Source: a phage
Length of the DNA: 64,000 nt
Direction: 5' to 3' (one strand)
Sequence record: PZ445521.1
Each line of letters opens with the position of its first letter. Position 1 is the first letter of the stretch. Both the position numbers and the translations under genes were made by a program. The notes beneath the pieces were generated by a model, which searched no databases, was not told the DNA's origin, and worked only from the letters and a program-made list of their open reading frames with translations. Shown piece after piece: positions 2,140-45,075 of this stretch.

Positions 2140-2720
2140 TATTCACCACAGAATTCGTTGATATTTTCCCAGTTTAACTTATTCAAGTTTTTCTTAGGAA
2201 CATTAAACACTTCAATACCTGCATTTCGCAGAATATCATCCCAGCCAGGTTTATTTTTATCGTATGTTTCACAATAAACCAGCTTTTTAATTCCAGATTG
2301 AGCTATCGCTTTTGCACAATCTGGGCAAGGAGAAAGTGTTACATACATAGTAGCACCTTCAATAGAAGAACCATTTCGTGCAGCAAACAAAATCGCATTT
2401 AGTTCAGCGTGAATTTCATTTTTAGACGACCATTCAGAGTGAGCGCTACGGTGTTCTTTCGCCAAGACAAAACGATCAGTTGAACCAAACGATACGCATT
2501 CAGGCTTATGACCTTGAATGATAGTATGTTTAGGCTTGTTCAACAACCAGCCTTGTTCAGCAGCATAATCACAGCAATTCACACCACCAGCAGGTGAACC
2601 ATTATATCCGGTAGAAATAATACGTCCATTCTTTTCAATTACTGCTCCTACCTTCCAGGAGCAGCATTTTGATTCTTGCGATACTAAATATGCAATTTGA
2701 AGTACTGTACTCGCTTTCAT
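2139..2720 (-). CDS. cd: dCMP deaminase
   Basis: 193-aa ORF with zinc-binding HAE...PCxxC deaminase motifs (HAELNAI, SPCPDCAKAI). Confidence 0.9.
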   Translation of the reverse strand: MKASTVLQIAYLVSQESKCCSWKVGAVIEKNGRIISTGYNGSPAGGVNCCDYAAEQGWLLNKPKHTIIQGHKPECVSFGSTDRFVLAKEHRSAHSEWSSKNEIHAELNAILFAARNGSSIEGATMYVTLSPCPDCAKAIAQSGIKKLVYCETYDKNKPGWDDILRNAGIEVFNVPKKNLNKLNWENINEFCGE

Positions 2721-3055
2721 TTCATAATCACCAGATAAGCAGATTTAGCAGTTTCTACACGATAAATTTCGTGACGAAGTTTAGTTATACTTTTAATAAC
2801 AGAACTAATTATATTCTGCCCATCTTTAAAGCGGTTTTTCTTATCAATAAAAATTGCGCCAACCAGCTTTTTGTGAAGCTCAACTGGATACTTCGTCACA
2901 ATAATAGCATCATACACAGAAGGATGAATACTATTCACTAGAGTGTCATTCATTAAAGTTATTCTAATGAACTGTGCTGTTTCAGAGTCAAGCGCTCTAT
3001 GATCGCCAGTATCATTTTCAAGACAATTATCAATTATATCAGTTAAATTCATCAT
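2717..3055 (-). CDS. hypothetical protein (cd.1 position)
   Basis: ORF track; 4-nt overlap with cd. Confidence 0.5.
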   Translation of the reverse strand: MMNLTDIIDNCLENDTGDHRALDSETAQFIRITLMNDTLVNSIHPSVYDAIIVTKYPVELHKKLVGAIFIDKKNRFKDGQNIISSVIKSITKLRHEIYRVETAKSAYLVIMK

Positions 3056-3288
3056 AGTACGCCATACACCCTTTGTGCTTCAACTAATCCATCAAAATCC
3101 AATTTGAGATGTGTTATTTGGTCACCATCACCTGGATTCACAATTACTAATACTGAACGAGGAGTTTCGGTAATAACGCGAACCGATGTTTCTGGAAATC
3201 GTTCAGAAACCTTATTTACCAATTCCTGAGCAAATAGTTTAACTTTTTCTTGGAATTCTTTAACAGTAATTGGTTTTTCACTTAGCAT
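3052..3288 (-). CDS. hypothetical protein (cd.2 position)
   Basis: ORF track; 4-nt overlap upstream. Confidence 0.5.
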   Translation of the reverse strand: MLSEKPITVKEFQEKVKLFAQELVNKVSERFPETSVRVITETPRSVLVIVNPGDGDQITHLKLDFDGLVEAQRVYGVL

Positions 3289-3318
3289 TTTGTTTTCCTC
3301 ATTTGTTTCGGTAGAGCT

Positions 3319-3348
3319 ATAATATCACAACTCTACCACAAAGTAAAC
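3319..3348 (-). promoter_or_regulatory. T4-type early promoter (GTTTAC -35, 18-nt spacer, TATTAT -10)
   Basis: Minus strand reads GTTTACtttgtggtagagttgtgaTATTAT in the 64-nt gap upstream of ORF starting at 3288. Confidence 0.55.
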
Positions 3349-3352
3349 TATA

Positions 3353-3628
3353 TTAAATTGCTTTGAATTCTGATGTCTGCGATTCAAAACGAATATCACC
3401 TTTGATGACTAACTCAGCGTCAAGACCGAATACGACAATGATATGCGCGGAACCTGGATACAGCGTAATGGCAATAGAATCCACCTGGTCTGGAAGCAAA
3501 GTGTTCAATACATGAGTCACTTGAGCATGAATTCGAAGCTCGGCTGCGTTATCAAGCTTTTCAAACATATTATTAGCAATAATTTGGCTAAACACTACTT
3601 CTACGATTTTAGAATAAGTCGGAAACAT
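3353..3628 (-). CDS. hypothetical protein (cd.3 position)
   Basis: ORF track. Confidence 0.5.
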   Translation of the reverse strand: MFPTYSKIVEVVFSQIIANNMFEKLDNAAELRIHAQVTHVLNTLLPDQVDSIAITLYPGSAHIIVVFGLDAELVIKGDIRFESQTSEFKAI

Positions 3629-3630
3629 AT

Positions 3631-3831
3631 TTACCTCACATAATTTTCTTCAAGCCAATCAATAACATCTAACGCATTATCAAAAGTTGAACCATCTACT
3701 TTGTCTTCTGTTTCATAATCAAGAACATCTAAGCCTACTCTTCCATTAACAATAGGCCATAAACAAAATAAATATTTCTTTTCTTTTTCAATTTTATCAC
3801 AAAGTTGATAAATCTTTTCTATGTTATTCAT
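3631..3831 (-). CDS. hypothetical protein (cd.4 position)
   Basis: ORF track. Confidence 0.5.
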   Translation of the reverse strand: MNNIEKIYQLCDKIEKEKKYLFCLWPIVNGRVGLDVLDYETEDKVDGSTFDNALDVIDWLEENYVR

Positions 3832-4020
3832 AAGTTTTCCATGGTAAAGGCAGTTTAGTTTTCTTTACTGTTAGTTCAACATCAGGATTCTTTTCTCTTA
3901 ATTTAAGGCATTCCTCCCAAGCTCTGATTTCACTAGTGAATACACAAAATTGCCCATTACTAGTACCAACTAAACCACTATTTACAATAACAATAGACCA
4001 AGTTTCATGATGCCACGCCA

Positions 4021-19995: not shown

Positions 19996-22900
19996 ATGGC
20001 CGAGATTAAAAGAAAGTTCAGAGCAGAAGATGGTCTGGACGCAGGTGGCGATAAAATAATCAACGTAGCTTTAGCTGATCGTACCGTAGGAACTGACGGT
20101 GTTAACGTTGATTACTTAATTCAAGAAAACACAGTTCAACAATATGATCCAACTCGTGGATATTTAAAAGATTTTGTAATCATTTATGATAACCGCTTTT
20201 GGGCTGCTATAAATGATATTCCAAAACCAGCAGGAGCTTTTAATAGCGGACGCTGGAGAGCATTACGTACAGATGCTAACTGGATTACGGTTTCATCTGG
20301 TTCATATCAATTAAAATCTGGTGAAGCAATTTCGGTTAACACTGCAGCTGGAAATGACATTACGTTTACTTTACCATCTTCTCCAATTGATGGCGATACT
20401 ATCGTTCTCCAAGATATTGGAGGAAAACCTGGAGTTAACCAAGTTTTAATTGTAGCTCCAGTGCAAAGTATTGTAAACTTTAGAGGTGAACAGGTACGTT
20501 CAGTACTAATGACTCATCCAAAGTCACAGCTAGTTTTAATTTTTAGTAATCGTCTGTGGCAAATGTATGTTGCTGATTATAGTAGAGAAGCTGTAATTGT
20601 AACACCAGCGAATACTTATCAAGCGCAATCAAATGATTTTATCGTACGTAGATTTACTTCTGCTGCACCAATTAATGTTAAACTTCCAAGATTTGCTAAT
20701 CATGGCGATATTATTAATTTCGTTGATTTAGATAAACTGAATCCACTTTATCATACAATTGTTACTACATACGATGAAACGACTTCAGTACAAGAAGTTG
20801 GAACTCATTCCATTGAAGGCCGTACATCGATTGACGGTTTCTTGATGTTTGATGATAATGAGAAATTGTGGAGATTGTTTGACGGGGATAGTAAAGCACG
20901 TTTACGCATTATAACGACTAATTCTAATATTCGTCCAAACGAAGAAGTTATGGTATTTGGTGCGAATAACGGAACAACTCAAACAATTGAGCTTCAGCTT
21001 CCAACTAATATTTCTGTTGGTGATACTGTTAAAATTTCCATGAATTACATGAGAAAAGGACAAACAGTTAAAATCAAAGCTGCCGGTGAAGATAAAATTG
21101 CTTCTTCAGTTCAATTGCTGCAATTCCCAAAACGTTCAGAATATCCGCCTGAAACTAAATGGGTAACTGTTCAAGAATTAGTTTTTAACGGTGAAACTAA
21201 TTATGTTCCAGTTTTACAGCTTGCTTATATAGAAGATTCTGATGGAAAATACTGGGTTGTACAGCAAAACGTTCCAACTGTAGAAAGAGTAGACTCTTTA
21301 AATGATTCTACTAGAGCAAGATTAGGCGTAATTGCTTTAGCTACACAGGCTCAAGCTAACGTCGATTTAGAAAATTCTCCACAAAAAGAATTAGCAATTA
21401 CTCCAGAAACATTAGCTAACCGTACTGCTACAGAAACTCGTAGAGGTATCGCAAGAATAGCAACTACTGCTCAAGTGAATCAGAACACCACATTCTCTTT
21501 TGCAGATGACCTTATCATCACTCCTAAAAAGCTGAATGAAAGAACAGCTACTGAAACTCGCAGAGGTGTTGCTGAAATTGCTACGCAGCAAGAAACTAAT
21601 ACAGGAACCGATGATACTACAATCATCACTCCTAAAAAGCTTCAAGCTCGTCAAGGTTCTGAATCATTATCTGGTATTGTAACTTTTGTATCTACTGCAG
21701 GTGCTACTCCAGCTTCTAGCCGTGAATTAAATGGTACGAATGTTTATAATAAAAACACTAATAATTTAGTTGTTTCACCTAAAGCTTTGGATCAGTATAA
21801 AGCTACTCCAACACAGCAAGGTGCAGTAATTTTAGCAGTTGAAAGTGAAGTAATTGCTGGACAAAGTCAGGAAGGATGGGCAAATGCGGTTGTAACGCCA
21901 GAAACGTTACATAAAAAGACATCAACTGATGCAAGAATTGGTTTAATTGAAATTGCTACGCAAAGTGAAGTTAATACAGGAACTGATTATACTCGTGCAG
22001 TCACTCCTAAAACTTTAAATGACCGTAGAGCAACTGAAAGTTTAAGTGGTATAGCTGAAATTGCTACACAGGTTGAATTCGACGCAGGCGTCGACGATAC
22101 TCGTATCTCTACACCATTAAAAATTAAAACCAGATTTAATAGTACTGATCGTACTTCTGTTGTTGCTCTATCTGGATTAGTTGAATCAGGAACTCTCTGG
22201 GACCATTATACCCTTAATATTCTTGAAGCAAATGAGACACAGCGTGGTACACTTCGTGTAGCTACACAGGTCGAAGCTGCTGCAGGAACATTAGATAATG
22301 TTTTAATAACTCCTAAAAAGCTTTTAGGTACTAAATCTACCGAATCGCAAGAAGGTGTTATTAAAGTTGCAACTCAGTCTGAAACTGTAGCTGGAACGTC
22401 AGCAAATACTGCTGTATCTCCAAAAAATTTAAAATGGATTGCGCAGAGTGAACCAACTTGGGCAGCTACTACTGCGATAAGGGGCTTTGTTAAAACTTCA
22501 TCTGGTTCAATTACATTCGTTGGTAATGATACAGTCGGTTCTACCCAAGATTTAGAACTGTATGAGAAAAATAGCTATGCGGTATCACCATATGAATTAA
22601 ACCGTGTATTAGCAAATTATTTACCGTTAAAAGCAAAAGCTGCTGATACAAATTTATTGGATGGTCTAGATTCATCTCAGTTCATTCGTAGGGATATTGC
22701 ACAGACGGTTAATGGTTCACTAACCTTAACCCAACAAACGAATCTGAGTGCCCCTCTTGTATCATCTAGTACTGCTACGTTTGGTGGTTCAGTTTCGGCA
22801 AATAGTACATTAACTATTTCTAATACTGGAACTGCAACTCGTCTGATTTTTGAGAAAGGACCTCAAACTGGAACTAACCCAGCACAGACGATGACTATTA

Positions 22901-23865
22901 GAGTTTGGGGAAATCAGTTTGGCGGCGGTTCAGATACAACACGTTCTACTGTATTTGAAGTTGGTGATGAAACATCTAATCACTTTTATTCTCAACGTAA
23001 TAAAGCTGGTAATATTACGTTTAGCATTAATGGTACTGTGATGCCAATAAATGTTAATGCTTCGGGTTCTTTAAATGCGAATGGCGTTGCAACATTTGGT
23101 AGTTCAGTTACAGCCAATGGTGAATTCATCAGCAAGTCTGCAAATGCTTTTAGAGCAATAAACGGTGATTATGGGTTCTTTATTCGCAATGATGCTGCTA
23201 ACACCTATTTTATGCTTACTGCATCGGGTGATCAGACTGGCGGATTTAATGGATTACGTCCTTTGTCTATTAACAATGCATCTGGTCAAGTAACGATCGG
23301 TGAAAGCTTAATCATTGCTAAAGGTGCTACTATAAATTCAGGTGGTTTGACTGTTAACTCGAGAATTCGTTCTCAGGGTACTAAAACATCTGATTTATAT
23401 ACCCGTGCACCAACATCTGATACGGTAGGATTCTGGTCAATTGATATTAACGATTCAGCTACTTATAACCAGTTCCCGGGTTATTTTAAAATGGTTGAAA
23501 AAACTAATGAAGTGACTGGACTTCCGTACTTAGAACGTGGCGAAGAAGTTAAATCTCCTGGTACACTGACACAGTTTGGTAACACACTTGATTCGCTTTA
23601 CCAAGATTGGATTACTTATCCAACGACACCAGAAGCGCGTACCACTCGCTGGACACGTACATGGCAGAAAACCAAAAACTCTTGGTCAAGTTTTGTTCAG
23701 GTATTTGACGGAGGTAACCCTCCTCAACCATCTGATATCGGTGCTTTACCATCTGATAATGCTACAATGGGGAATCTTACTATTCGTGATTTCTTACGAA
23801 TTGGTAATGTTCGCATTATTCCTGACCCAGTGAATAAAACGGTTAAATTTGAATGGGTTGAATAA
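19996..23865 (+). CDS. 34: gp34 long tail fiber proximal subunit
   Basis: 1289-aa ORF MAEIKRKFRAEDGLDAGGDKIINVAL...; internal (I)TPKKL/RGxAxIAT repeats. Confidence 0.95.
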   Translation: MAEIKRKFRAEDGLDAGGDKIINVALADRTVGTDGVNVDYLIQENTVQQYDPTRGYLKDFVIIYDNRFWAAINDIPKPAGAFNSGRWRALRTDANWITVSSGSYQLKSGEAISVNTAAGNDITFTLPSSPIDGDTIVLQDIGGKPGVNQVLIVAPVQSIVNFRGEQVRSVLMTHPKSQLVLIFSNRLWQMYVADYSREAVIVTPANTYQAQSNDFIVRRFTSAAPINVKLPRFANHGDIINFVDLDKLNPLYHTIVTTYDETTSVQEVGTHSIEGRTSIDGFLMFDDNEKLWRLFDGDSKARLRIITTNSNIRPNEEVMVFGANNGTTQTIELQLPTNISVGDTVKISMNYMRKGQTVKIKAAGEDKIASSVQLLQFPKRSEYPPETKWVTVQELVFNGETNYVPVLQLAYIEDSDGKYWVVQQNVPTVERVDSLNDSTRARLGVIALATQAQANVDLENSPQKELAITPETLANRTATETRRGIARIATTAQVNQNTTFSFADDLIITPKKLNERTATETRRGVAEIATQQETNTGTDDTTIITPKKLQARQGSESLSGIVTFVSTAGATPASSRELNGTNVYNKNTNNLVVSPKALDQYKATPTQQGAVILAVESEVIAGQSQEGWANAVVTPETLHKKTSTDARIGLIEIATQSEVNTGTDYTRAVTPKTLNDRRATESLSGIAEIATQVEFDAGVDDTRISTPLKIKTRFNSTDRTSVVALSGLVESGTLWDHYTLNILEANETQRGTLRVATQVEAAAGTLDNVLITPKKLLGTKSTESQEGVIKVATQSETVAGTSANTAVSPKNLKWIAQSEPTWAATTAIRGFVKTSSGSITFVGNDTVGSTQDLELYEKNSYAVSPYELNRVLANYLPLKAKAADTNLLDGLDSSQFIRRDIAQTVNGSLTLTQQTNLSAPLVSSSTATFGGSVSANSTLTISNTGTATRLIFEKGPQTGTNPAQTMTIRVWGNQFGGGSDTTRSTVFEVGDETSNHFYSQRNKAGNITFSINGTVMPINVNASGSLNANGVATFGSSVTANGEFISKSANAFRAINGDYGFFIRNDAANTYFMLTASGDQTGGFNGLRPLSINNASGQVTIGESLIIAKGATINSGGLTVNSRIRSQGTKTSDLYTRAPTSDTVGFWSIDINDSATYNQFPGYFKMVEKTNEVTGLPYLERGEEVKSPGTLTQFGNTLDSLYQDWITYPTTPEARTTRWTRTWQKTKNSWSSFVQVFDGGNPPQPSDIGALPSDNATMGNLTIRDFLRIGNVRIIPDPVNKTVKFEWVE

Positions 23866-23873
23866 GAGGTATT

Positions 23874-24989
23874 ATGGAAAAATTTATGGCAGAGTTTGGA
23901 CAAGGATATGTCCAAACGCCATTTTTATCGGAAAGCAATTCAGTAAGATATAAAATAAGCATAGCGGGTTCTTGCCCGCTTTCTACAGCAGGACCATACG
24001 TTAAATTTCAGGATAATCCTGTAGGAAGTCAAACATTTAGCGCAGGCCTTCATTTAAGAGTTTTTGACCCTTCCACCGGAGCATTAGTTGATAGTAAATC
24101 ATATGCTTTTTCGACTTCAAATGATACTACATCAGCTGCCTTTGTTAGTTTCATGAATTCTTTGACGAATAATCGAATTGTTGCTATATTAACTAACGGA
24201 AAGGTTAATTTTCCTCCTGAAGTAGTATCTTGGTTAAGAATCGCCGGAACGTCTGCTTTTCCATCTGACTCTATATTGTCAAGATTCGACGTATCATATG
24301 CTGCTTTTTATACTTCTTCTAAAAGAGCTATTGCATTAGAGCATGTTAAACTGAGTAATAGAAAAAGCACAGATGATTATCAAACTATTTTAGATGTTGT
24401 ATTTGACAGTTTAGAAGACGTCGGAGCTACCGGGTTTCCAAGAAGAACGTATGAAAGCGTTGAGCAATTCATGTCAGCGGTTGGTGGAACTAATAACGAA
24501 ATTGCGCGTCTACCAACTTCAGCTGCTATAAGTAAACTCTCTGATTATAATTTAATTCCTGGTGACGTTCTTTATCTTAAAGCCCAGTTATATGCTGATG
24601 CCGATTTACTTGCTCTTGGAACAACAAATATATCTATCCGTTTTTATAATGCATCTAACGGATATATTTCCTCGACACAAGCTGAGTTTACTGGACAAGC
24701 TGGGTCTTGGGAATTAAAGGAAGATTATGTAGTTGTTCCAGAAAATGCAGTTGGATTTACGATATATGCACAAAGAACTGCTCAAGCGGGACAAGGCGGT
24801 ATGCGAAATTTAAGCTTTTCTGAAGTATCAAGAAATGGCGGAATTTCAAAACCCGCTGAATTTGGCGTCAACGGCATTCGTGTTAATTATATCTGTGAAT
24901 CTGCTTCACCTCCGGATATAATGGTACTTCCTACACAAGCATCGTCTAAAACTGGTAAAGTGTTTGGGCAAGAATTTAGAGAAGTATAA
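23874..24989 (+). CDS. 35: gp35 long tail fiber hinge connector
   Basis: 371-aa ORF immediately after 34. Confidence 0.9.
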   Translation: MEKFMAEFGQGYVQTPFLSESNSVRYKISIAGSCPLSTAGPYVKFQDNPVGSQTFSAGLHLRVFDPSTGALVDSKSYAFSTSNDTTSAAFVSFMNSLTNNRIVAILTNGKVNFPPEVVSWLRIAGTSAFPSDSILSRFDVSYAAFYTSSKRAIALEHVKLSNRKSTDDYQTILDVVFDSLEDVGATGFPRRTYESVEQFMSAVGGTNNEIARLPTSAAISKLSDYNLIPGDVLYLKAQLYADADLLALGTTNISIRFYNASNGYISSTQAEFTGQAGSWELKEDYVVVPENAVGFTIYAQRTAQAGQGGMRNLSFSEVSRNGGISKPAEFGVNGIRVNYICESASPPDIMVLPTQASSKTGKVFGQEFREV

Positions 24990-24994
24990 ATTGA

Positions 24995-25017
24995 GGGAGC
25001 CTTCGGGTTCCCTTTTT
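24995..25017 (+). terminator. rho-independent terminator after gene 35
   Basis: gggagcc-ttcg-ggttccc hairpin followed by TTTTT. Confidence 0.65.
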
Positions 25018-25020
25018 CTT

Positions 25021-25028
25021 TATAAATA
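25021..25028 (+). promoter_or_regulatory. late promoter TATAAATA for gene 36
   Basis: Exact TATAAATA 24 nt upstream of gene 36 ATG. Confidence 0.7.
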
Positions 25029-25051
25029 CTATTAAAATAAAGGGGCATACA

Positions 25052-25717
25052 ATGGCTGATTTAAAAGTAGGTTCAACAACTGGAGGCTCTGTCATTTGGC
25101 ATCAAGGAAATTTTCCATTGAATCCGGCCGGTGACGATGTACTCTATAAATCATTTAAAATATATTCAGAATATAACAAACCACAAGCTGCAGATAACGA
25201 TTTCGTTTCTAAAGCTAACGGTGGTACTTATGCATCAAAGGTAACATTTAATGCTGGTGTTCAAGTACCATATGCTATAAACAATACAAACCAAAGTGGT
25301 ATTTATCCTGGTAATGGAGATGCAGCTACTTTTGTTACAGCAAATATTGATATTGTTTCATGGTATGGCGTAGGATTTAAATCATCACAAGGATCTGCCG
25401 GTAGAACTGTAGTAATTAATACACGCAATGGTGATATTAGCACAAAAGGTGTTGTGTCGGCAGCTGGTCAAGTAAGAAGTGATGCGGCTGCTCCTATAGC
25501 AGCGAATGACCTTACTAGAAAGGACTATGTTGATGGAGCAATAAATACTGTTACAACAAATGCAAACTCTAGAGTGTTACGATCTGGTGACACTATGACG
25601 GGAAACTTAACCGCACCAAACTTTTTCTCGCAGAATCCTGCATCTCAACCTTCACATGTTCCACGATTTGACCAAATCGTAATTAAGGATTCTGTTCAAG
25701 ATTTCGGCTATTATTAA
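25052..25717 (+). CDS. 36: gp36 long tail fiber distal connector
   Basis: 221-aa ORF. Confidence 0.9.
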   Translation: MADLKVGSTTGGSVIWHQGNFPLNPAGDDVLYKSFKIYSEYNKPQAADNDFVSKANGGTYASKVTFNAGVQVPYAINNTNQSGIYPGNGDAATFVTANIDIVSWYGVGFKSSQGSAGRTVVINTRNGDISTKGVVSAAGQVRSDAAAPIAANDLTRKDYVDGAINTVTTNANSRVLRSGDTMTGNLTAPNFFSQNPASQPSHVPRFDQIVIKDSVQDFGYY

Positions 25718-25725
25718 GAGGACTT

Positions 25726-28700
25726 ATGGCTACTTTAAAACAAATACAATTTAAAAGAAGCAAAACCGCAGGTGCACGTCCTGCTGCTTCAGTATTAGCC
25801 GAAGGTGAATTGGCTATAAATTTAAAAGATAGAACAATTTTTACTAAAGACGATTCAGGAAATATCATTGACTTAAGCATTTCCGCTGGCGGTAATATCA
25901 GTGGTAATATCACTCAAACTGGTGATTATACACAGACTGGAAAATTTAATTTAATTGGCCCGCAGATTATAGCAAGTGGTGGATATATTGAGTTTAATTA
26001 TCGTACTACTGGAAGTGGGGCTTGGTCCGGTCAACACACTGCAAAGGCTCCAATTTTTGTAGATTTAAGCTCAGCTACTTCCACATCTGAATATAATCCT
26101 ATAATTAAACAGCGCTTTAAAGATGGAACTTTTTCATTAGGTACTTTAGTTTCTGAAGGTTCGTTGAAGATTCATTATATTGATGAAACTGGTCAATCTA
26201 AATATTGGACATTTGCGCGCTCAGGTAATTTTCAAGTTGATTCTGGTAATTTATTAGTATCTGGTGGGTATTTAGTCGCTCAGAGTAATATTGAAACAAG
26301 AACAGGTTCTTTGATTGGTCCATCTGTTGTAACTAAAAATATTTCATTTGATACGAAAGCGTTTGGACAATACGATTCGCAGTCATTAGTTCAATATGTT
26401 TATCCTGGAACTGGTGAAACAAACGGAATTAATTACCTTCGTAAATTCCGTGCAAAATCTGGTGGTACGATTTATCATGAATTAGCTTCTGCACAAACCG
26501 GAAAAAGTGATGAACTGTCTTGGTGGACCGGTAATACAGCCGTTAATAAACAAATGGGCCTTCGCAATGATGGGTCTTTAGTGTTGCGACGCTCACTCGC
26601 AATTGGTACAATTACAACAGATGAAAACATTAATAATTACGGCTCAACTGGAGCAATGGGTGAATGCTATATAGTCATTGGAGATGCCGCAACTGGTGTA
26701 TCATATAAAAGATCTGGTGTATATGATTTAGTTGCTAATGGTCTTTCTATCGCGTCTATTACTCCTGACAGTTTCCGTAGTACTCGTAAAGCATTATTTG
26801 GACGTTCAGAAGACCAAGGCGGAACATGGAATATGCCTGGAACGAACGCCGCGTTTTTATCGGTTCAAACACAGGCTGATGAAAACACTGCTGGAGACGG
26901 TCAAACCCATATTGGATATAACTCTGGCGGTAAAATGAACCACTATTTCCGTGGTAAAGGAAAAACTAATATTAATACTCAAGAAGGCATGGAAGTTAAC
27001 CCGGGTATTTTGAAATTGGTAACTGGCTCTAATAATGTAATGTTTTATGCTGATGGCGGTATTACATCTGTTAAGCAGCTTTCAATATATAACGGCATAT
27101 ATTTAGCAGCTAATAATTCTACTGCTGGGCTAACATTCGCTCCAACTACTACAATTGATGGCACTAAGCAAATTTTGTGGGAAGGCGGTACTCGTGCTGG
27201 TCAGAATAAAAGCTATGTAACTGTTAAAGCATGGGGTAATTCATTTAACGCATCTGGCGATCGTAATCGTGAAACGGTTTTTGAAGTAGCTGATGGACAA
27301 GGATATTATTTTTATTCACAGCGTGTGGCTCCAAGTGGCTCTGAAACTACTGGGCCTGTTGTAACCCAGTTCAATGGACAAGTTAATGCTAGAGGAAGTA
27401 TTATTACTGACGGAAGTTTTAAAGTTAATGGATTAAGCACTTTAGTCGGTAATGTTACCATGTCTAATGGTTTGTTTGTTCAAGGTGGTTCTTCTATTAC
27501 AGGCCAAGTAAAAATTGGTGGAACAGCAGATGCATTAAGAATTTGGAATGCTGAATACGGGGCTATTTTCCGTCGTTCTGAAGATAAGCTTTATATTATT
27601 CCAACTCCGCAGAATGCTGGTGAATCAGGTGGTATTTCTAATTTACGTCCGTTCTATATTACATTAAGTACTGGTAAAGTTTCCATGGATCATGATGTAG
27701 ATATCGGCGGCGGTAGATTTAAAGTAGAAGTGGCTGGAACTACGGCTGGTCAACGTATTATAGTTAATGCAGCGAGCGATGCTATTAGAATAAATGCTCC
27801 AACACAAGAGTCTTCTAACTTCATTCAAGGACGTAAGGCTGATGTGAATAAATGGTATTTGGGTATTGGCGATGGCGGCAACGTCGTTCGTATGCACAGC
27901 TACACATATTCACATGGTATTGCATTAAATTCTGATTCTGTCGATATTACTAAGCCTCTTAAAGTCGGAAACGCCCAACTAGGAACTGACGGTAATATTA
28001 CCAATGGTTCAGGAAACTTTGCCAACTTAAATACCACGTTAAATCGTAAAGTTAATTCTGGATTTATTACTTATGGAGCAACCTCTGGATGGTATAAGTT
28101 TGCAACTGTAACAATGCCACAATCCACTTCAACAGTCTTCTTTAAAATAGTTGGAGGTTCTGGATTTAATAGCGGATTATTCACACAATGTAATATTGCT
28201 GAAATTGTTTTACGTACTAGTAATGAAAGACCTGCTGACTTAAATGCTGCATTATACACAAGAACAATTGGAGCTGCATTTAAAGATATTGCAGTTAATA
28301 ACGTCTCTGGAGATACATATGACATTTATGTTTCTGCTGGAACATATTGTAATCAATTAGCTTGTGAGTGGTCATGTACCGAAAATGCTACTGTTAGTGT
28401 TATTGGTATTAACTCATCTACACAATCACCTGTAGATGCTCTTCCAGATACAGCAGTTAACGGTCAAGTTGCTAATGTTCTTAATAACTTGGTTGATCGC
28501 GGTAAAGTTAAGCGTTATGAAGCCGATTCTGAAATAGCTATTAATAGCCCAACCGGTATTCGTATCAGAAGCAATGGCGATAAAACTGGTTCTGTGGCTA
28601 CAATGTTACGAAATGATGGCGGTAGTTTTTATATTCTGTTTACAGATAAAAATGCCACCGATGGCGCAGCAACTGTTAATGGTGATTGGAATAGTAAACG

Positions 28701-29487
28701 TCCTTTCGCAATTAACTTAACAACCGGCGAAGTGATGATGAATAATGGCATAGCTGTTCGCAGCGCTGCTTTATTCTATAATAGCATAAACGTCAAAGAT
28801 AATGGTTCTATTAACTTTGATAAATCAGGTGCTAACCCGAGAAATATGAGAATATTTCATGCTGGCGATGCTTCTCGCGGTAACCGTATTGAAATTGCCG
28901 ATGAAACTAACTATATTGCTTACTTTGAAAAAACTCCAGGTGGAGCTAACCGCTTTGTAGTAAATAATGCTACTGTGGCTGGTGTTAATCAAATGAATTC
29001 ATTTGGTATTAACATCAATAACGCACTTGGTGGAAACAGTATAGCATTTGGTGATAATGACACTGGCATTAAACAATCCGGTGACGGACTTCTTGATATC
29101 ATTACTAACGCCGCACGACGAATGAGATTCCAGACGGGTGACACTTATTCTGACATGAATATAAATGCTCCAAACGTTTATATTCGTTCTGATATTCGTT
29201 TGAAATCTAATTTCAGACCTATTGAAAATGCTCTTGAAAAGGTTGAGCAGCTTGATGGTTTAATCTATGATAAAGCTGACTATATAGGTGGTGAAATTGT
29301 TCAGACTGAAGCAGGTGTTATTGCTCAGAAATTGAACGAAGTATTACCTGAAGCAGTTCGTGAAGTTGAAGATATTAAGGGTAATAAAATACTCACTATT
29401 TCTTCTCAATCCCAGATTGCTCTTCTAGTTGAAGCTGTGAAAACACTTTCTGCTCGTGTAAAAGAACTTGAATCTAAACTTATGTAA
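25726..29487 (+). CDS. 37: gp37 long tail fiber distal subunit (T2-type, 1253 aa)
   Basis: ORF MATLKQIQFKRSKTAGARPAASVLAEGELAINLKD...; followed by separate gp38 adhesin. Confidence 0.9.
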   Translation: MATLKQIQFKRSKTAGARPAASVLAEGELAINLKDRTIFTKDDSGNIIDLSISAGGNISGNITQTGDYTQTGKFNLIGPQIIASGGYIEFNYRTTGSGAWSGQHTAKAPIFVDLSSATSTSEYNPIIKQRFKDGTFSLGTLVSEGSLKIHYIDETGQSKYWTFARSGNFQVDSGNLLVSGGYLVAQSNIETRTGSLIGPSVVTKNISFDTKAFGQYDSQSLVQYVYPGTGETNGINYLRKFRAKSGGTIYHELASAQTGKSDELSWWTGNTAVNKQMGLRNDGSLVLRRSLAIGTITTDENINNYGSTGAMGECYIVIGDAATGVSYKRSGVYDLVANGLSIASITPDSFRSTRKALFGRSEDQGGTWNMPGTNAAFLSVQTQADENTAGDGQTHIGYNSGGKMNHYFRGKGKTNINTQEGMEVNPGILKLVTGSNNVMFYADGGITSVKQLSIYNGIYLAANNSTAGLTFAPTTTIDGTKQILWEGGTRAGQNKSYVTVKAWGNSFNASGDRNRETVFEVADGQGYYFYSQRVAPSGSETTGPVVTQFNGQVNARGSIITDGSFKVNGLSTLVGNVTMSNGLFVQGGSSITGQVKIGGTADALRIWNAEYGAIFRRSEDKLYIIPTPQNAGESGGISNLRPFYITLSTGKVSMDHDVDIGGGRFKVEVAGTTAGQRIIVNAASDAIRINAPTQESSNFIQGRKADVNKWYLGIGDGGNVVRMHSYTYSHGIALNSDSVDITKPLKVGNAQLGTDGNITNGSGNFANLNTTLNRKVNSGFITYGATSGWYKFATVTMPQSTSTVFFKIVGGSGFNSGLFTQCNIAEIVLRTSNERPADLNAALYTRTIGAAFKDIAVNNVSGDTYDIYVSAGTYCNQLACEWSCTENATVSVIGINSSTQSPVDALPDTAVNGQVANVLNNLVDRGKVKRYEADSEIAINSPTGIRIRSNGDKTGSVATMLRNDGGSFYILFTDKNATDGAATVNGDWNSKRPFAINLTTGEVMMNNGIAVRSAALFYNSINVKDNGSINFDKSGANPRNMRIFHAGDASRGNRIEIADETNYIAYFEKTPGGANRFVVNNATVAGVNQMNSFGININNALGGNSIAFGDNDTGIKQSGDGLLDIITNAARRMRFQTGDTYSDMNINAPNVYIRSDIRLKSNFRPIENALEKVEQLDGLIYDKADYIGGEIVQTEAGVIAQKLNEVLPEAVREVEDIKGNKILTISSQSQIALLVEAVKTLSARVKELESKLM

Positions 29488-29488
29488 A

Positions 29489-29517
29489 AGAGGGCTTCGG
29501 CCCTCTAAGGATTTTTT
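29489..29517 (+). promoter_or_regulatory. UUCG stem-loop between 37 and 38 overlapping gene 38 RBS region
   Basis: agagggc-ttcg-gccctct hairpin then aaggatttttt; ATG of 38 at 29519. Confidence 0.5.
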
Positions 29518-29518
29518 A

Positions 29519-30304
29519 ATGGCAATTGTAGGTGTTCCTGGCTGGATTGGTGAATCTGCCGTGAATGAAACTGGACAACGTTGGATGGATGCTGCAATGA
29601 GAGCAGTCCGTGTTTCAGTTCCCGGTTGGATGAGCTCAATGGCCGGACAATCTAAAGAAGTATATTATAGCATTGGTGCTAGTAATTCTTATAATAAAGA
29701 TACATTAATAAACTGGATAAAAGCACAAGGGTCCACGCCTGTTGTTATTACTATTACAGGAAATATTGTTTCTCAATCTACTGGTGTTCCATGCTTAGAT
29801 TTTCCTAGCTCATTAACTAATGCATACGTGACACTTAATATCAATTCAGGCGTGCATGTTTGGGGCCGTGGCGGGAATGGCGGAAATAACTCTGCAGGTG
29901 GAGCAGGAGGAACTGCAATAAATAATGGAATTGGAACTAGATTGCGTATTAACAACAATGGTGTTATCGCAGGAGGCGGTGGCGGCGGTGGCGGCGGATA
30001 TTATTCTCCTTTTTCACAAATGAAATTGACTTTTGGCGGTGGCGGCGGTCGTCCATTTGGTGCTGCTGGCGGGTCTGCTAATATGGAACAGGGCGCTACT
30101 GCTGGTACTATTTCTGCACCTGGTAAAGGGTCTGTCAATGGTATCTATAATGGCGGGAATGGCGGTGATGCTGGTGCCGCAGGTGGTAAATGTAATATTC
30201 GTGGGCAAGGATCAGAATATAACGGCGGTGCGGCTGGTAAAGCTGTTACTGGTAATGCTCCAACTTGGACTAAGGTTGGTACAATATATGGTTCAAGAGT
30301 ATAA
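29519..30304 (+). CDS. 38: gp38 tail fiber adhesin with glycine-rich motifs (T2/T6 type)
   Basis: 261 aa from MAIVGVPGWIGESAVNETGQRW.. with GGGGGGGGGYY and GGGGGRPFGAAGG glycine-rich blocks; track ORF has 17-codon upstream extension. Confidence 0.85.
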   Translation: MAIVGVPGWIGESAVNETGQRWMDAAMRAVRVSVPGWMSSMAGQSKEVYYSIGASNSYNKDTLINWIKAQGSTPVVITITGNIVSQSTGVPCLDFPSSLTNAYVTLNINSGVHVWGRGGNGGNNSAGGAGGTAINNGIGTRLRINNNGVIAGGGGGGGGGYYSPFSQMKLTFGGGGGRPFGAAGGSANMEQGATAGTISAPGKGSVNGIYNGGNGGDAGAAGGKCNIRGQGSEYNGGAAGKAVTGNAPTWTKVGTIYGSRV

Positions 30305-30336
30305 TTTTTGAATAAATATCCTTAAAAGGAGGGTCT

Positions 30337-30993
30337 ATGGCAGCACCTAGAATATCATTTTCGCCCTCTGATATTCTATTTGGTGTTCTAGATCGCTTGT
30401 TCAAAGATAACGCTACCGGGAAAGTTCTTGCTTCCCGGGTAGCTGTCGTAATTCTTTTATTTATGATGGCGATTGTTTGGTATAGGGGAGATAGTTTCTT
30501 TGAGTACTATAAGCAATCAAAGTATGAAACATACAGTGAAATTATTGAAAAGGAAAGAAATGCACGCTTTGAATCTGTCGCCCTGGAACAACTCCAGATA
30601 GTTCATATATCATCTGAGGCAGACTTTAGTGCGGTGTATTCTTTCCGCCCTAAAAACTTAAACTATTTTGTTGATATTATAGCATATGAAGGAAAATTAC
30701 CTTCAACAATAAGTGAAAAATCACTTGGAGGATATCCTGTTGACAAAACTATGGATGAATATGCAGTCCATTTAAATGGACGTCATTATTATTCTGACTC
30801 AAAATTTGCTTTTTTACCAACTAAAAAGCCTACTCCCGAAATAAACTACATGTACAGTTGTCCATATTTTAATTTGGATAATATCTATGCTGGAACGATA
30901 ACCATGTACTGGTATAGAAATGATCATATAAGTAATGACCGCCTTGAATCAATATGTGCTCAGGCGGCCAGAATATTAGGAAGGGCTAAATAA
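30337..30993 (+). CDS. t: holin T
   Basis: 218-aa ORF with single N-proximal TM (VAVVILLFMMAIVWY) and large C-terminal domain. Confidence 0.9.
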   Translation: MAAPRISFSPSDILFGVLDRLFKDNATGKVLASRVAVVILLFMMAIVWYRGDSFFEYYKQSKYETYSEIIEKERNARFESVALEQLQIVHISSEADFSAVYSFRPKNLNYFVDIIAYEGKLPSTISEKSLGGYPVDKTMDEYAVHLNGRHYYSDSKFAFLPTKKPTPEINYMYSCPYFNLDNIYAGTITMYWYRNDHISNDRLESICAQAARILGRAK

Positions 30994-39496: not shown

Positions 39497-41674
39497 TTAG
39501 GCCGCAAGGGCCTTCATAGTTTTAGCGATTTGGGAAACTTCATCATCACTTAAAGAGTTGCGATAACCGATGAAGTCGGAAACAATACGGAATTTCTTGG
39601 TAAACTCAGCAACCATTTTATCACTATTTTTTGAAGCATTACGTGATAATTCATCAAAAAGATTAGTTACCGTCCAGATGTCATGACCGATGGTATCTTT
39701 TCCACCATTAAAATATACACCGCGCAATGAACTAACTATATTAGCGAGTCGTGTATATTCTTCAGAAACTTCATCTGTACTGAAGTACTTCATCATAAAA
39801 TCTAGTTCAGGATGCTTGATAATTTTATCAATATATCGTTGAGCTGAACTTGAATAACCTACATACTTATCATAATCTACATCATCAAAAGCATCTACAT
39901 ATAAATCACGCAAAGCTTCAAAAATACATTGGCACTGACCAAGCTCTTTTACCTTTTTCTGCAAAAGCGGACGAATAACATAAAATTCATTAATGCCAAT
40001 AAGATTAGCCATACGAATCAAAATATTCATAGATGGATGACAAAGCGATGTAGTACCATCCATAGAGAAAATATCAGAACGATGCATATACGCTACATAA
40101 CCAGTAATTTCATCTGCTTCTGACGTAAGTGTAAATAGTTCCTCTTTTTCCCAGCGCCCGTCTTTAATTTCAAACTTAAATGCTGTAGCAGCTTTAGGAC
40201 GAGGAGCTTTACTTTTAACTACCTTTGGAATATAACTTTTTACTAAAGCTTCAATTTCTGACAAATAGTGAATGTTAACTTCATCACTTTCAAACATCGC
40301 CATAATATCAGGGAGTAAATCAATCTGCGATTCTACTTCCGGATTAATAAACAGAAGACGCTCATTGTGATGAATATTTAAAGTGTTATTAAATTCACTA
40401 TCATCTAACGCATGTGCTAATCCACGGACAATATTAACACGATTTTTAATATTATCAATAACGATATTAATTTTTGTTGTATTAATACCAAACAGACGAT
40501 AACTTGATGCAACGGCTGAAGTTTCATGACTTTGCTTAATACGCTTCAGTCGAGGGTCAAGATTTACTTCATACACAACCCCTGCATTGCATAGCTTACT
40601 GTCAGGTTCAAACATGCTCTGCATTTTCTTATATGACAGATTTTTAGTCGTGAATTTGACTGAATTACTAATCATATAATCTCGAGCAGAATACCCCATC
40701 TTCATCAATTCACGATATGTATGACGAGGAGATGTAGATTCTTTAAATCGTTTTACATCTTCATTAAATGCTTTCTCACTGAGTTCTTTAACTCGTTCAA
40801 TAATATTTTTACGAGTACGATCATCAAGTGAAAGAGCCTCACGAGATGGAGCAATATCCAGTGAACCCATTGGAAACTTAATGTAATTCACTTCATTGCG
40901 AATGCTTAGCCAGTTACGGTCTCTAATAACACCATCGATAGGATAAACGATACCGCCGTAGATAGCATATAATCCACCACGATCTGGCCAGTATCTTTCT
41001 GGATTTACACCGTAATAATCATCAAAATCCGGAAAATAATCAATTTCGCGGTCAAGACCATTAATGATAGCCAAATCTTTGAATGGTCGCATGATATAAG
41101 AAACTTCATAAGCAAAGTTTCTAAAGTCTTTTTCTTCAACTGGAACTACGATTTCAATACCAGTTTTATCATCTGGACCCATTTCTTTTACGAATGTAGG
41201 TTTAATTTGTGGACCATCGCCATCCATGTAAGCTACATAACCACGAATTTCACCTTTATGATACGAAGTAATACTAAATGTATCAGTATAACTAAACGGA
41301 GATTTAGAACCTAAACCAAATCCGCCAATGAAATCGTTAGATTCAGCCTTAGATGAACTGAAGTATGAATTATACAAACCAGGAGAATTATCATCACCTT
41401 GAATATCAAAATCACTCATACCCGGACCAAAATCTCGACAAACAAATCGTGGGTCTAAACGTCCAGGAACTTGTATGATAAATTTTTCAGGATTTCCATT
41501 AAGTGCATGGGCATCAATCATGTTAGTAATCAATTCACGGACTACTGCGCGAATCTTGTTTGTATACAAATCAGATGACAGAATTTTAAATACTTTAGGA
41601 TTTGCTGCGATGCTAAATGCTTTTGATTTAGAACCATTACCAAGAATTGTTTCTTTTTCAGTGGTGATAATCAT
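39497..41674 (-). CDS. rIIA: rIIA protein (GHKL ATPase-like)
   Basis: 725-aa ORF. Confidence 0.9.
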
Positions 41675-41888: not shown

Positions 41889-41942
41889 TTCAATATCCTC
41901 ATTTGCCCAATTAATTATACCACATCCTTGTGGTAAAGTAAA

Positions 41943-43763
41943 CTACTGGCTCATCCATTCTTTACGAAGGTCAGCATTATCTCCCATGAGCATTTCAAAA
42001 AGCTCTTTCCAGTTCTCAGGAAGTTTAACAACATCATATACTGGATTTTGAATCATCTCACGATATTCAGATTTTTCCAAAGAGCCAAGTCCCTTAATAT
42101 AACGGATGCTATGTTTAGGTAGAGCATCTTTGGCACTCTCATATTCAGCGACTGTATAAAACCATTCTTGTTTTTTACCGACCTGAGCGATGATTACAGG
42201 AGTTTTGACAAAGCGAATTCGTCCTTGCTCAAACAATTCTGGCCAATTACTAAAAAACCCGAGCAGAGAAGGATAAATGCTTCCTAGACCATCATGGTCA
42301 GCATCGGTCATAATAGCAATATTATGATAATTCAAGTTTTCAGCTTTTTCACCAAGAACTAATCCAGTGATTGCGCAAATATCAAACAGTTCTTTGTTTT
42401 TAAGCATATCAGCATATGACATACCCCAACTGTTGAGAACTTTACCACGCAATGGATAACCACCATGAAGTTCTTTATCACGAACATCAATAAGATATCC
42501 GATAGCAGAATCACCCTCAGTCAAGAAAAGAGTAGTATCAGCATCTTTACCACAAAGATTCGCTTTGATATGTTTATGAACCTTAGCTTTAGAAGCCTTT
42601 TTAGCTGCTTTAGTTTCTGCTGCTTTTTCTGCTGCCAATTTACGGGCCAAGGCAGCTTCAATAATCGGCATTAAAATTGCTTCATTATTTAGAATAGCGC
42701 GTGAAATCTTTTTAGCATCAAGTTGAATATGACTACGAATTTCACCAAAAGGAGAAGTAAGTCGTTCTTTAGTTTGAGAATCAAATCGCATGTTTTTCAT
42801 ATCACGGACAAACATAACGATAGTCAAACATTCTTTAACGCGTGCTTTAGTTACATCAATTTTGAACTTACGTTTGATTTGTGGAATAAGGTCTTCACAA
42901 ATATCATCCATAACACAGTCAATGTGATGGCCACCATTCTTAGTGTGAATGTTATTCACATAAGTTAATTGGCGAAATCCATCCGGTGAACGACCAACCG
43001 CAATAGAACAATTTTCTTGTTCTTGAACAATAGCATGTTCATCATACTGTCGTGCATATTTCTTAAAATTGCCCTGAACCTTTTTACCATTAAAGGTAAA
43101 TTGAATATCAGGATAAACAACAGCAAGTGTCTGGAGACGATCTAGTGTAATGTCAAGATAAACTTGGGACAGCTCATTAGTTTCAAATGACATAAAATCA
43201 GGAATGAAAGTAACACGGGTTCCTTTCCATTTTCCTGGAATAGTTTCCCATGATTTATTTTCCATGCCATTTGAACAACGAACTACAATATTATTTTGAC
43301 CATCGCCAGTTTCACCGACAAACATCACAGAAAAAATGTTAGTTAAACTAGAACCAACACCATTCATACCACCGGTGACACGTTCTTTATCATCACCGAA
43401 GTTACCACCCGCTTTTGGAATAGTCCAAGCAGCAACTGGACCAGGAATTTCTTCACCGGTAGGTGTTTTAACCATCGCTTGTGGAATACCGCGACCGTTA
43501 TCTTCAACTGTTACCTGATTATTTTTAATGGTAACATTAATTTTATTCGCGAATTTAAACTTAGTACGAATACCTTCATCGACTGAGTTATCGATAATTT
43601 CATCAATAAGCTTAACAAGACCAGGTACATACTGAACACTTTCCCATTTACCAAACAGAAAGCGCTCATGCATTTCATTAGCAGAAGAGCCAATATACAT
43701 GCCGCTACGCTTTTTGATATGTTCAATATCGCTCAGAATTTTAATTTCATTCTTAATCATCAC
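41943..43763 (-). CDS. 39: DNA topoisomerase II large subunit, unsplit (39 and 60 equivalents in one ORF)
   Basis: 606-aa continuous GyrB-like ORF (GHKL ATPase N-terminus, Toprim region). Confidence 0.9.
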   Translation of the reverse strand: MMIKNEIKILSDIEHIKKRSGMYIGSSANEMHERFLFGKWESVQYVPGLVKLIDEIIDNSVDEGIRTKFKFANKINVTIKNNQVTVEDNGRGIPQAMVKTPTGEEIPGPVAAWTIPKAGGNFGDDKERVTGGMNGVGSSLTNIFSVMFVGETGDGQNNIVVRCSNGMENKSWETIPGKWKGTRVTFIPDFMSFETNELSQVYLDITLDRLQTLAVVYPDIQFTFNGKKVQGNFKKYARQYDEHAIVQEQENCSIAVGRSPDGFRQLTYVNNIHTKNGGHHIDCVMDDICEDLIPQIKRKFKIDVTKARVKECLTIVMFVRDMKNMRFDSQTKERLTSPFGEIRSHIQLDAKKISRAILNNEAILMPIIEAALARKLAAEKAAETKAAKKASKAKVHKHIKANLCGKDADTTLFLTEGDSAIGYLIDVRDKELHGGYPLRGKVLNSWGMSYADMLKNKELFDICAITGLVLGEKAENLNYHNIAIMTDADHDGLGSIYPSLLGFFSNWPELFEQGRIRFVKTPVIIAQVGKKQEWFYTVAEYESAKDALPKHSIRYIKGLGSLEKSEYREMIQNPVYDVVKLPENWKELFEMLMGDNADLRKEWMSQ

Positions 43764-43813
43764 TTATCCTCGTTTGGTTTCGGGAATATTATACTCCAGT
43801 AATCATAAAGCTA

Positions 43814-43829
43814 AAGGCCCGAAGGCCTT
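43814..43829 (-). promoter_or_regulatory. C(UUCG)G stem-loop downstream of lipoprotein ORF
   Basis: aaggcc-cgaa-ggcctt immediately after stop at 43831. Confidence 0.5.
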
Positions 43830-43830
43830 T

Positions 43831-44100
43831 TTATTTAAAACGAATAGTTGAATCCTTAAAGAACAGCCCAGAACATACTGTTCCTTCTACTTTCTGCCCG
43901 GTAGGTCCAACAGCACGAAATCCAGTATGTTGGAAATCATTTTCAGAGCAACCGAACCAGTTATATCCAGTGATTTCAATATTCGTAAAACCACTCGATG
44001 ATAAAATTTTAGTTGCATTATCAGCATCAGTACATCCTACTAAAGATACTGCTAATACTAATGCTGCGATAGAACGATTAACATATTTCATAATTTTCAC
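43831..44100 (-). CDS. putative lipoprotein (39.1 position)
   Basis: Signal peptide with LVGC lipobox (MKIMKYVNRSIAALVLAVSLVGC). Confidence 0.55.
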   Translation of the reverse strand: MKIMKYVNRSIAALVLAVSLVGCTDADNATKILSSSGFTNIEITGYNWFGCSENDFQHTGFRAVGPTGQKVEGTVCSGLFFKDSTIRFK

Positions 44101-44649: not shown

Positions 44650-45075
44650 TTATTCCTTAAAGTGTGCTTTCAACATTTGATACAAGGACCATGCCTGTTC
44701 ATTATTTTCAATAGTAACTTTCATGACAGGAAATTCTGTGAAATCTTCTATTTGTTCTTGCTCTTTCTCTTCCTGCTCTTGCTCTTCAGCTGCCTGGTAT
44801 GGATTTTCAACTTCATCAAAGAATTCAGCTTCGCTAGTAGAAAGCCAAATAAAATCTTCATCCAAAATATCTTTACCGGAGGATAATGCCAATCTTCCAG
44901 TAGATGACATAATTTTAGTTGGACGACCAAGATAGTCAATATCTATAACTTTAAAAGGTTCCATACCTAAACGTCGTGCATAAATTCCGTTTTCAGTATG
45001 GTCTTTAATAAAAGCTTCTTGAGCTTGTTTATTTTTAAATTGATACCATTTATTAACTTCAAATCTAATAGCCAT
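44650..45075 (-). CDS. goF: acidic protein, possibly GoF (comC-alpha) homolog
   Basis: 141-aa ORF in the T4 goF position; assignment by size and synteny only. Confidence 0.45.

Follow-up and report, generated by a model that had tools for sequence, protein, structure and literature searches.

The question raised by this locus is whether the phage encodes the large subunit of its DNA topoisomerase II in one piece or, as in T4, in two. That gene 39 is unsplit in T2 and T6, whereas T4 has genes 39 and 60 and a translational bypass, was established in the late 1980s and 1990s. The DNA analyzed here is a 64,000-nt stretch of a phage genome (record PZ445521.1), referred to below as the window. An earlier note, made from the sequence alone, had described the subunit in the window as a single 606-aa ORF that covers both T4 parts and lacks the bypass element and any associated mobile-endonuclease insertion. 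Based on the results presented below, this ORF is almost certainly the Tequatrovirus gene 39 in its uninterrupted T2/T6 form. The features of the locus are listed in Table 1.

Table 1. Features of the topoisomerase locus, with positions numbered from the first letter of the window.
Feature	Coordinates	Strand	Basis
Gene 39, uninterrupted large (GyrB/ParE-like) subunit of a T-even DNA topoisomerase II	41943..43760	-	ORF list, start context, Pfam, PHROG 543, PDB, T2/T6 alignment
Gene 39 upstream leader: hairpin AAAGGCC-TTCG-GGCCTTT, TAGCTTTA, 12 nt, TATAAT, GAGGA ribosome-binding site	43764..43832	-	Sequence and hairpin search
GHKL ATPase core, from EIIDNSVDE (aa 54-62) to the ATP-lid GGMNGVGSS (aa 130-138)	43347..43601	-	Pfam HATPase_c and motif positions
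QTK loop QTKERL (aa 329-334), transducer domain	42759..42776	-	Pfam DNA_gyraseB and motif positions
TOPRIM EGDSA motif (aa 415-419), with the putative catalytic glutamate	42504..42518	-	Motif position and alignment to ParE/Topo II TOPRIM
TOPRIM acidic motif DADHDG (aa 486-491), putative DxDxD metal-binding site	42288..42305	-	Codon listing
64-nt 'empty site', about residues 473-494 (A-ENLNYHNIAIMTDADHDG-LGS), including the TOPRIM DxDxD	42279..42342	-	blastn break points (window 42343 = T4T 2367; 42278 = T4T 3474)
Gene 52, medium (GyrA/ParC-like, DNA-cleaving) subunit, 442 aa	33995..35323	-	PDB and PHROG matches

According to the program-made ORF list, the minus-strand frame at 41943..43763 runs without an internal stop for 606 codons counted from a GTG. 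The frequency of stop triplets in the window (36% G+C) is 0.066, and therefore the probability of 606 open codons occurring by chance is about 1e-18. The second codon of the ORF, directly after the GTG, is an ATG (43760-43758). The GAGGA sequence ends 6 nt before this ATG and just 3 nt before the GTG. Furthermore, the annotated gene 39 of JK38, T2 and T6, as well as the T6 gp39 chain of PDB 8YLU, starts with ATG (MIKNE...). Because of this spacing and these homologous starts, ATG is preferred over GTG, and the gene 39 product most likely comprises 605 aa. The one stop-free frame described in the earlier note was thus found at the same place; the length of 606 aa given there is the mechanical length of the ORF, which differs trivially from the 605 aa counted from ATG.

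The 2.6 kb around the ORF shared 100% DNA identity with Shigella phage JK38 (Tequatrovirus) and 95-99% identity with 487 other records of T4-like phages (Tequatrovirus). Judging by the ORF order, gene 39 is located between a 39.1 homologue and rIIA.1/rIIA, and all of these genes lie on one strand; rIIA.1 was matched to Pfam PF24210 (E = 1.4e-33). The gene 39 product (gp39) matched PHROG 543, 'DNA topoisomerase II large subunit', from end to end (E = 1.6e-295). In the Pfam search, gp39 was recognized by HATPase_c (38.4 bits, cut-off 26.4), DNA_gyraseB (51.1 bits, cut-off 27) and TOPRIM_C (30.7 bits, cut-off 29), and the Toprim model PF01751 gave no match in gp39 at E <= 0.001. It is worth noting that aa 407-604 can be aligned to the TOPRIM regions of solved ParE and Topo II structures. 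A TOPRIM domain is assigned to gp39 on the basis of its motifs, the TOPRIM_C match and these alignments. The EGDSA, DADHDG, QTK and ATP-lid motifs are all intact. The gene encodes a GyrB/ParE-like polypeptide of 605 aa, in which a GHKL ATPase is followed by transducer and TOPRIM domains, and its continuous chain is expected to include the stretch GEKAENLNYHNIAIMTDADHDGLGSIYPSLL.

To compare the locus with the split genes, T4 (NC_000866) and T4T (HM137666) were used as references, and in both comparisons the ORF was colinear with gp39 followed by gp60. In protein local alignments, residues 1-473 of the window protein corresponded to residues 1-473 of T4T gp39 with 99.2% identity, and residues 477-605 corresponded to residues 32-160 of T4T gp60 with two substitutions. 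In the window protein, E-N-L (aa 474-476) alone joins the gp39-like and gp60-like parts. The junctions were placed by blastn break points together with these protein alignments. A global MAFFT alignment of the junction was rejected, as it misplaced the left junction and aligned window bases to the cassette interior. Two ungapped DNA matches were obtained, one between window positions 43810-42343 and positions 900-2367 of the T4T locus, and the other between window positions 42278-41892 and T4T positions 3474-3860. Where the window has the 64 nt of the empty site, T4T has 1,106 nt.

The 1,106 nt of T4T comprise a gp39 tail, the gene for MobA, a gp60 head, a recoded 45-nt stretch and a 50-nt gap. 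The T4 gp39 tail of 43 residues (FEEKEDGEW...RKNL) and the T4 gp60 head of about 30 residues (MKFVKIDSS...SSSM) have no counterpart in the window, where the alignments with T4T found neither of them. MobA of T4T is an HNH endonuclease of 272 aa. The recoded stretch of T4T, NYANVAIMTDADHDG, is homologous to NYHNIAIMTDADHDG in the window, with a DNA identity of 73%. The untranslated gap of T4T, TAGCCTTCGGGCTATCTATAGAAATACCTCATAATTAAGAGATTATTGGA, lies between two GGA codons. The published MobA element measures 1097-1106 nt and goes with the loss of a 64-nt region; besides the bypass cassette, it has a homologous region and extensions at the C- and N-termini (bioRxiv 10.1101/2022.08.31.505936). 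The boundaries found between the window and T4T (64 versus 1,106 nt) match this published structure.

In T4, the take-off codon is the GGA encoding the final Gly of DADHDG, whereas the window has GGT there. The codons of the window at this position (GAT GGT CTA GGA AGC, encoding D-G-L-G-S) are continuous and contain no stop. The first 31 nt of the take-off and gap sequence (GGA plus gap nucleotides 1-28) had no match in the window at <=3 mismatches. A tblastn search of all 64 kb with T4T MobA revealed no MobA-like coding sequence in any reading frame (best E = 3.2). Hence the earlier reading of one GyrB-like ORF with neither the bypass element nor the mobile-endonuclease insertion is supported, because the ORF is colinear with both T4 parts and the window contains neither the bypass sequence nor a MobA homologue. 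Translation from the ATG would be conventional and colinear, with no ribosome hop and no subunit rebuilt from the products of two genes. In T4, the MobA cassette interrupts the gene within the part for the TOPRIM domain and introduces the 50-nt gap. On the present reading it never entered this genome, and at a minimum no trace of it is left there.

To assess how common the unsplit state is, phage records were searched with a 303-nt query that runs across the two cassette junctions, and a record was counted as uninterrupted when at least 80% of the query was covered in one place. The junction was uninterrupted in 455 of the 500 matching phage records. In the T4-type records, the match was confined to the portion 3' of the gap. 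The T4 insert was present in 43 records, which included T4 isolates, RB55, RB59, HY01, vB_EcoM_112 and others. Consequently, the unsplit gene 39 is the rule among sequenced Tequatroviruses (about nine out of ten), and T4 is the exception. In the literature, the unsplit gene is regarded as the parental form, and the cassette is seen as a mobile element that has inserted repeatedly (bioRxiv 10.1101/2022.08.31.505936). The feature in the window is a standard, already described T2/T6-type gene 39 and is not unusual.

The 64-nt site of the window differs from that of T2 by one synonymous base (ACC versus ACT). As summarised by Manning & Atkins, T2 was the recipient in a reported MobA-driven transfer (bioRxiv 10.1101/2022.08.31.505936). 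Since the two sites are nearly identical, gene 39 of the window probably offers an empty homing site that is susceptible when a MobA-carrying phage infects the same cell, and the locus could be used as a natural cassette-free recipient in MobA homing experiments. The 3' part of gene 39 (about 390 nt), which lies just downstream of the MobA target, shows a divergence of 0.5-1% among the window phage, T6 and T4T, and the 5' 1.47 kb of the gene shows a divergence of 3-4% among the same three phages. One may imagine that rounds of MobA-initiated repair with co-conversion, recurring in mixed infections, homogenise this 3' flank across Tequatroviruses, cassette-free genomes included. If so, the empty site would carry a population-level footprint of homing, but we consider this scenario very unlikely. 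More simply, the low 3' divergence could stem from purifying selection being stronger there, or from mosaic recombination of the ordinary kind.

The 3' part also bears on the possibility that the single ORF arose by a secondary, 'hit and run' fusion, in which an ancestor with the MobA/bypass cassette and split genes 39 and 60 lost the cassette precisely to give one ORF. For Aeromonas and Campylobacter phage clades, loss of the cassette has been described, after which the genes stayed split or became fused again (bioRxiv 10.1101/2022.08.31.505936), and the final ~390 nt of gene 39 in the window are indeed very close to T4T (2 differences in 387 nt). However, this closeness is not specific to T4, as T6 and T4T, and likewise the window and T6, are equally close to each other there. 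Moreover, the cassette-derived C-terminal extension of gp39 and N-terminal extension of gp60 are both missing from the window, the 45 nt matching the recoded region of the cassette are just 73% identical to T4T, and the 64-nt site, being one base away from that of the cassette-free T2, is T2-like rather than cassette-like. The 455 records likewise suggest that the near relatives have the parental site. Taken together, such a fusion is highly improbable. If recombination with a phage lacking the cassette had restored the site exactly, the sequence would be the same as if the cassette had never been there. The parental, uninterrupted gene 39, which nothing in these results contradicts, is the reading retained here.

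The product of gene 52 (gp52) was identified as the partner of gp39. Its residues 1-442 matched PDB 8ylu_A, 'DNA topoisomerase medium subunit' (E = 1.7e-296), and 8yo3_A (E about 1e-296), and the protein also matched PHROG 551 (E = 1e-220). We suggest that gp39 and gp52, whose genes lie 6.6 kb apart in the same window, would form an A2B2 type IIA topoisomerase. Such an enzyme would make a transient double-strand break in one duplex and, using ATP, carry a second duplex through it, relaxing DNA in phage replication.

Many similar phage records are labelled 'DNA gyrase subunit B' or 'parE', and gp39 contains the Pfam DNA_gyraseB and GHKL domains, so that the ORF might be read as a true GyrB of a supercoiling enzyme. 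Against this, the closest solved relatives of gp39 after the phage enzymes are eukaryotic Topo II alpha/beta (E about 1e-59), followed by ParE of topoisomerase IV (1e-48) and only then by GyrB (1e-36). Gyrase needs a C-terminal DNA-wrapping domain, for which gp52 with its 442 aa is too short. Solved full-length gyrase A is about twice as long as gp52, which has no GyrA-type C-terminal domain, and gp52 matched only the first ~200-375 residues of the solved gyrase A chains. In addition, assays of the T6 enzyme were those of a Topo II that relaxes DNA (PMC11461880). It is thus exceedingly unlikely that the ORF encodes a true gyrase subunit. In view of the similarity ranking and the short gp52, calling the product 'DNA gyrase subunit B' or 'parE' is loose, and by its sequence the enzyme of the window is classed as a relaxing Topo II and not as a gyrase. 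The proper name would be 'DNA topoisomerase II large subunit (gp39, unsplit)', and the names 'Gyrase B', 'parE' and 'hypothetical protein' carried by many records are wrong.

The weakest of the alternatives, an assembly or sequencing artefact that hides a genuine insertion or frameshift, found no evidence in its favour and is scarcely conceivable, because 455 independently deposited records agree on the uninterrupted junction, the independently sequenced T2 and T6 proteins match at all but 3 of 605 columns, and the DNA is 100% identical to that of JK38.

As for the expression of gene 39, its leader contains TAGCTTTA, which we take to resemble the MotA box of T4 middle promoters, and a putative promoter may be proposed there. 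The sigma-70 promoter scan gave 7 sites versus 9.8 in shuffled sequence, so that sigma-70 matches carry no weight alone. An Rfam scan of the whole window and a tRNA scan found nothing, and no structured-RNA element overlapping gene 39 was detected by them.

Among the known systems, cellular type IIA topoisomerases share with gp39 the order of domains (GHKL ATPase, transducer, TOPRIM) and the catalytic motifs. Their alignments (Topo II, ParE and GyrB) span nearly the whole of gp39, yet the sequence relationship is distant. Eukaryotic Topo II is one chain, whereas the phage of the window has the breakage-reunion part on the separate, short gp52. T4 has the same topoisomerase subunit and the same neighbouring genes as the window, and differs in the interrupted junction described above.

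The nearest known system is that of T2 and T6. The alignment proposed in the earlier note, which besides T4 genes 39 and 60 included T2/T6 gene 39, showed that gp39 of T2 and T6 has the same length as that of the window (605 aa), with all but 3 of the 605 columns matching and no gaps. Relative to the T6 gp39 chain of PDB 8YLU (chain C, 8ylu_C), the window protein has a single changed residue, with Q for H at position 525. At the DNA level, T6 gene 39 differs from that of the window at 62 of 1,818 nt; these differences are silent or near-silent only, and no functional difference is apparent. The T6 gp39 (YP_010067157.1) has been expressed and assembled with gp52; the purified T6 Topo II relaxed DNA, and its structure was determined by cryo-EM (PMC11461880). 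In that work, T6 gp39 and gp52 form a heterotetramer that relaxes DNA with ATP (PMC11461880). By analogy with the T6 protein, which is one residue apart, ATP-dependent strand passage and relaxation are predicted for the enzyme of the window. Recent structural and comparative work repeats the contrast between the unsplit T2/T6 gene and the split T4 gene (PMC11461880; bioRxiv 10.1101/2022.08.31.505936). In T2 and T6 the gene 39 junction is uninterrupted, as in the window, and in T2, T6 and JK38 the gene has the same neighbours, with the 39.1 homologue upstream and rIIA.1 and rIIA downstream.

The nucleotide differences between the window and its relatives are distributed unevenly along gene 39 (unsplit large subunit of topoisomerase II), on the two sides of the site occupied by the MobA cassette in T4-type phages. 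In the last ~390 nt, 3′ of this site (41892-42278), the window differs from the cassette-bearing T4T (HM137666) at 2 of 387 nt and from the cassette-free T6 at about 3 nt. The 1.47 kb on the 5′ side (42343-43810) differ from T4T at 60 of 1,468 nt. The same pattern was found between T6 and T4T, where the 3′ part is also less divergent than the 5′ part.

The T4 reference record (NC_000866) deviates from T4T and most other cassette-bearing phages. In this record (locus positions 2971-3767), mobA is interrupted and appears as "60.1" and a 114-nt CDS, whereas MobA is intact (272 aa) in T4T (locus positions 2478-3296) and most other cassette-bearing phages. Residues 1-473 of gp39 in NC_000866 differ from the window at eight positions, including LIR for FDS at 326-328, compared with only four differences in T4T and most other phages with the cassette. 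Mutations of the strain or errors in old sequencing may account for these deviations.

Both flanks of gene 39 carry promoter-like sites. Upstream (43764-43832; the sense strand is the minus strand), the hairpin AAAGGCC-TTCG-GGCCTTT is followed by TAGCTTTA, 12 nt and TATAAT; TAGCTTTA presumably resembles a MotA box. Directly past the stop codon (41914-41942, minus strand) lies the site TTTACT-17-TATAAT, which has 10 of 12 matches and an extended TG. It is also conserved in T4 and probably serves as the early promoter of rIIA.1/rIIA. The coordinates of the neighbouring genes and of the tail fibre block are listed below.

Features around gene 39 and elsewhere in the window
Feature	Window position	Strand	Remarks
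Sole plus-strand block	19996-30993	+	Positive GC skew
rIIA	39497-41674	-	Pfam HATPase_c_3, sub-threshold, residues 43-143
39.1 homologue, 86-89 aa	43831-44100	-	N-terminus MKYVNRSIAALVLAVSLVGCTD
goF paralogue ORF, 123 aa	44097-44468	-	PHROG 622, E = 3.5e-30
goF homologue	44650-45075		Adjacent to 123-aa ORF; also matches PHROG 622

The N-terminus of the 39.1 homologue looks like a lipoprotein signal peptide, including a lipobox cysteine, as judged from its sequence. The label given to the gene in the T2 and T6 records, "XRE family transcriptional regulator", seems to be wrong. The match of rIIA to the GHKL-type ATPase family HATPase_c_3 (22.6 bits, below the cut-off of 25; E = 1.1e-4) falls in the ATPase superfamily of the neighbouring topoisomerase subunit.

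Base 1 of the JK38, T2, T6 and T4 records lies inside the window, with the end of rIIA at 39497, so the window represents the genome in a rotated or circularly permuted form. Neither tRNA genes (tRNA scan) nor Rfam families (Rfam scan) were found in the 64 kb.

The ORFs of the plus-strand block encode 1289, 371, 221, 1253, 278 and 218 aa. Based on their position and on the annotations of matching records, among them "long tail fiber distal subunit" and "tail fiber adhesin Gp38", they probably correspond to long tail fibre genes 34-38 and the holin. Compared with the sizes of the T4 proteins, the long gp37 and the 278-aa gp38 appear to be of the T2/T6 rather than the T4 type.

The 123-aa goF paralogue is placed between the homologues of 39.1 and 39.2. 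No counterpart was found in T4T by blastn, which left a 370-nt gap there; in T2, this position is occupied by a 105-aa ORF.
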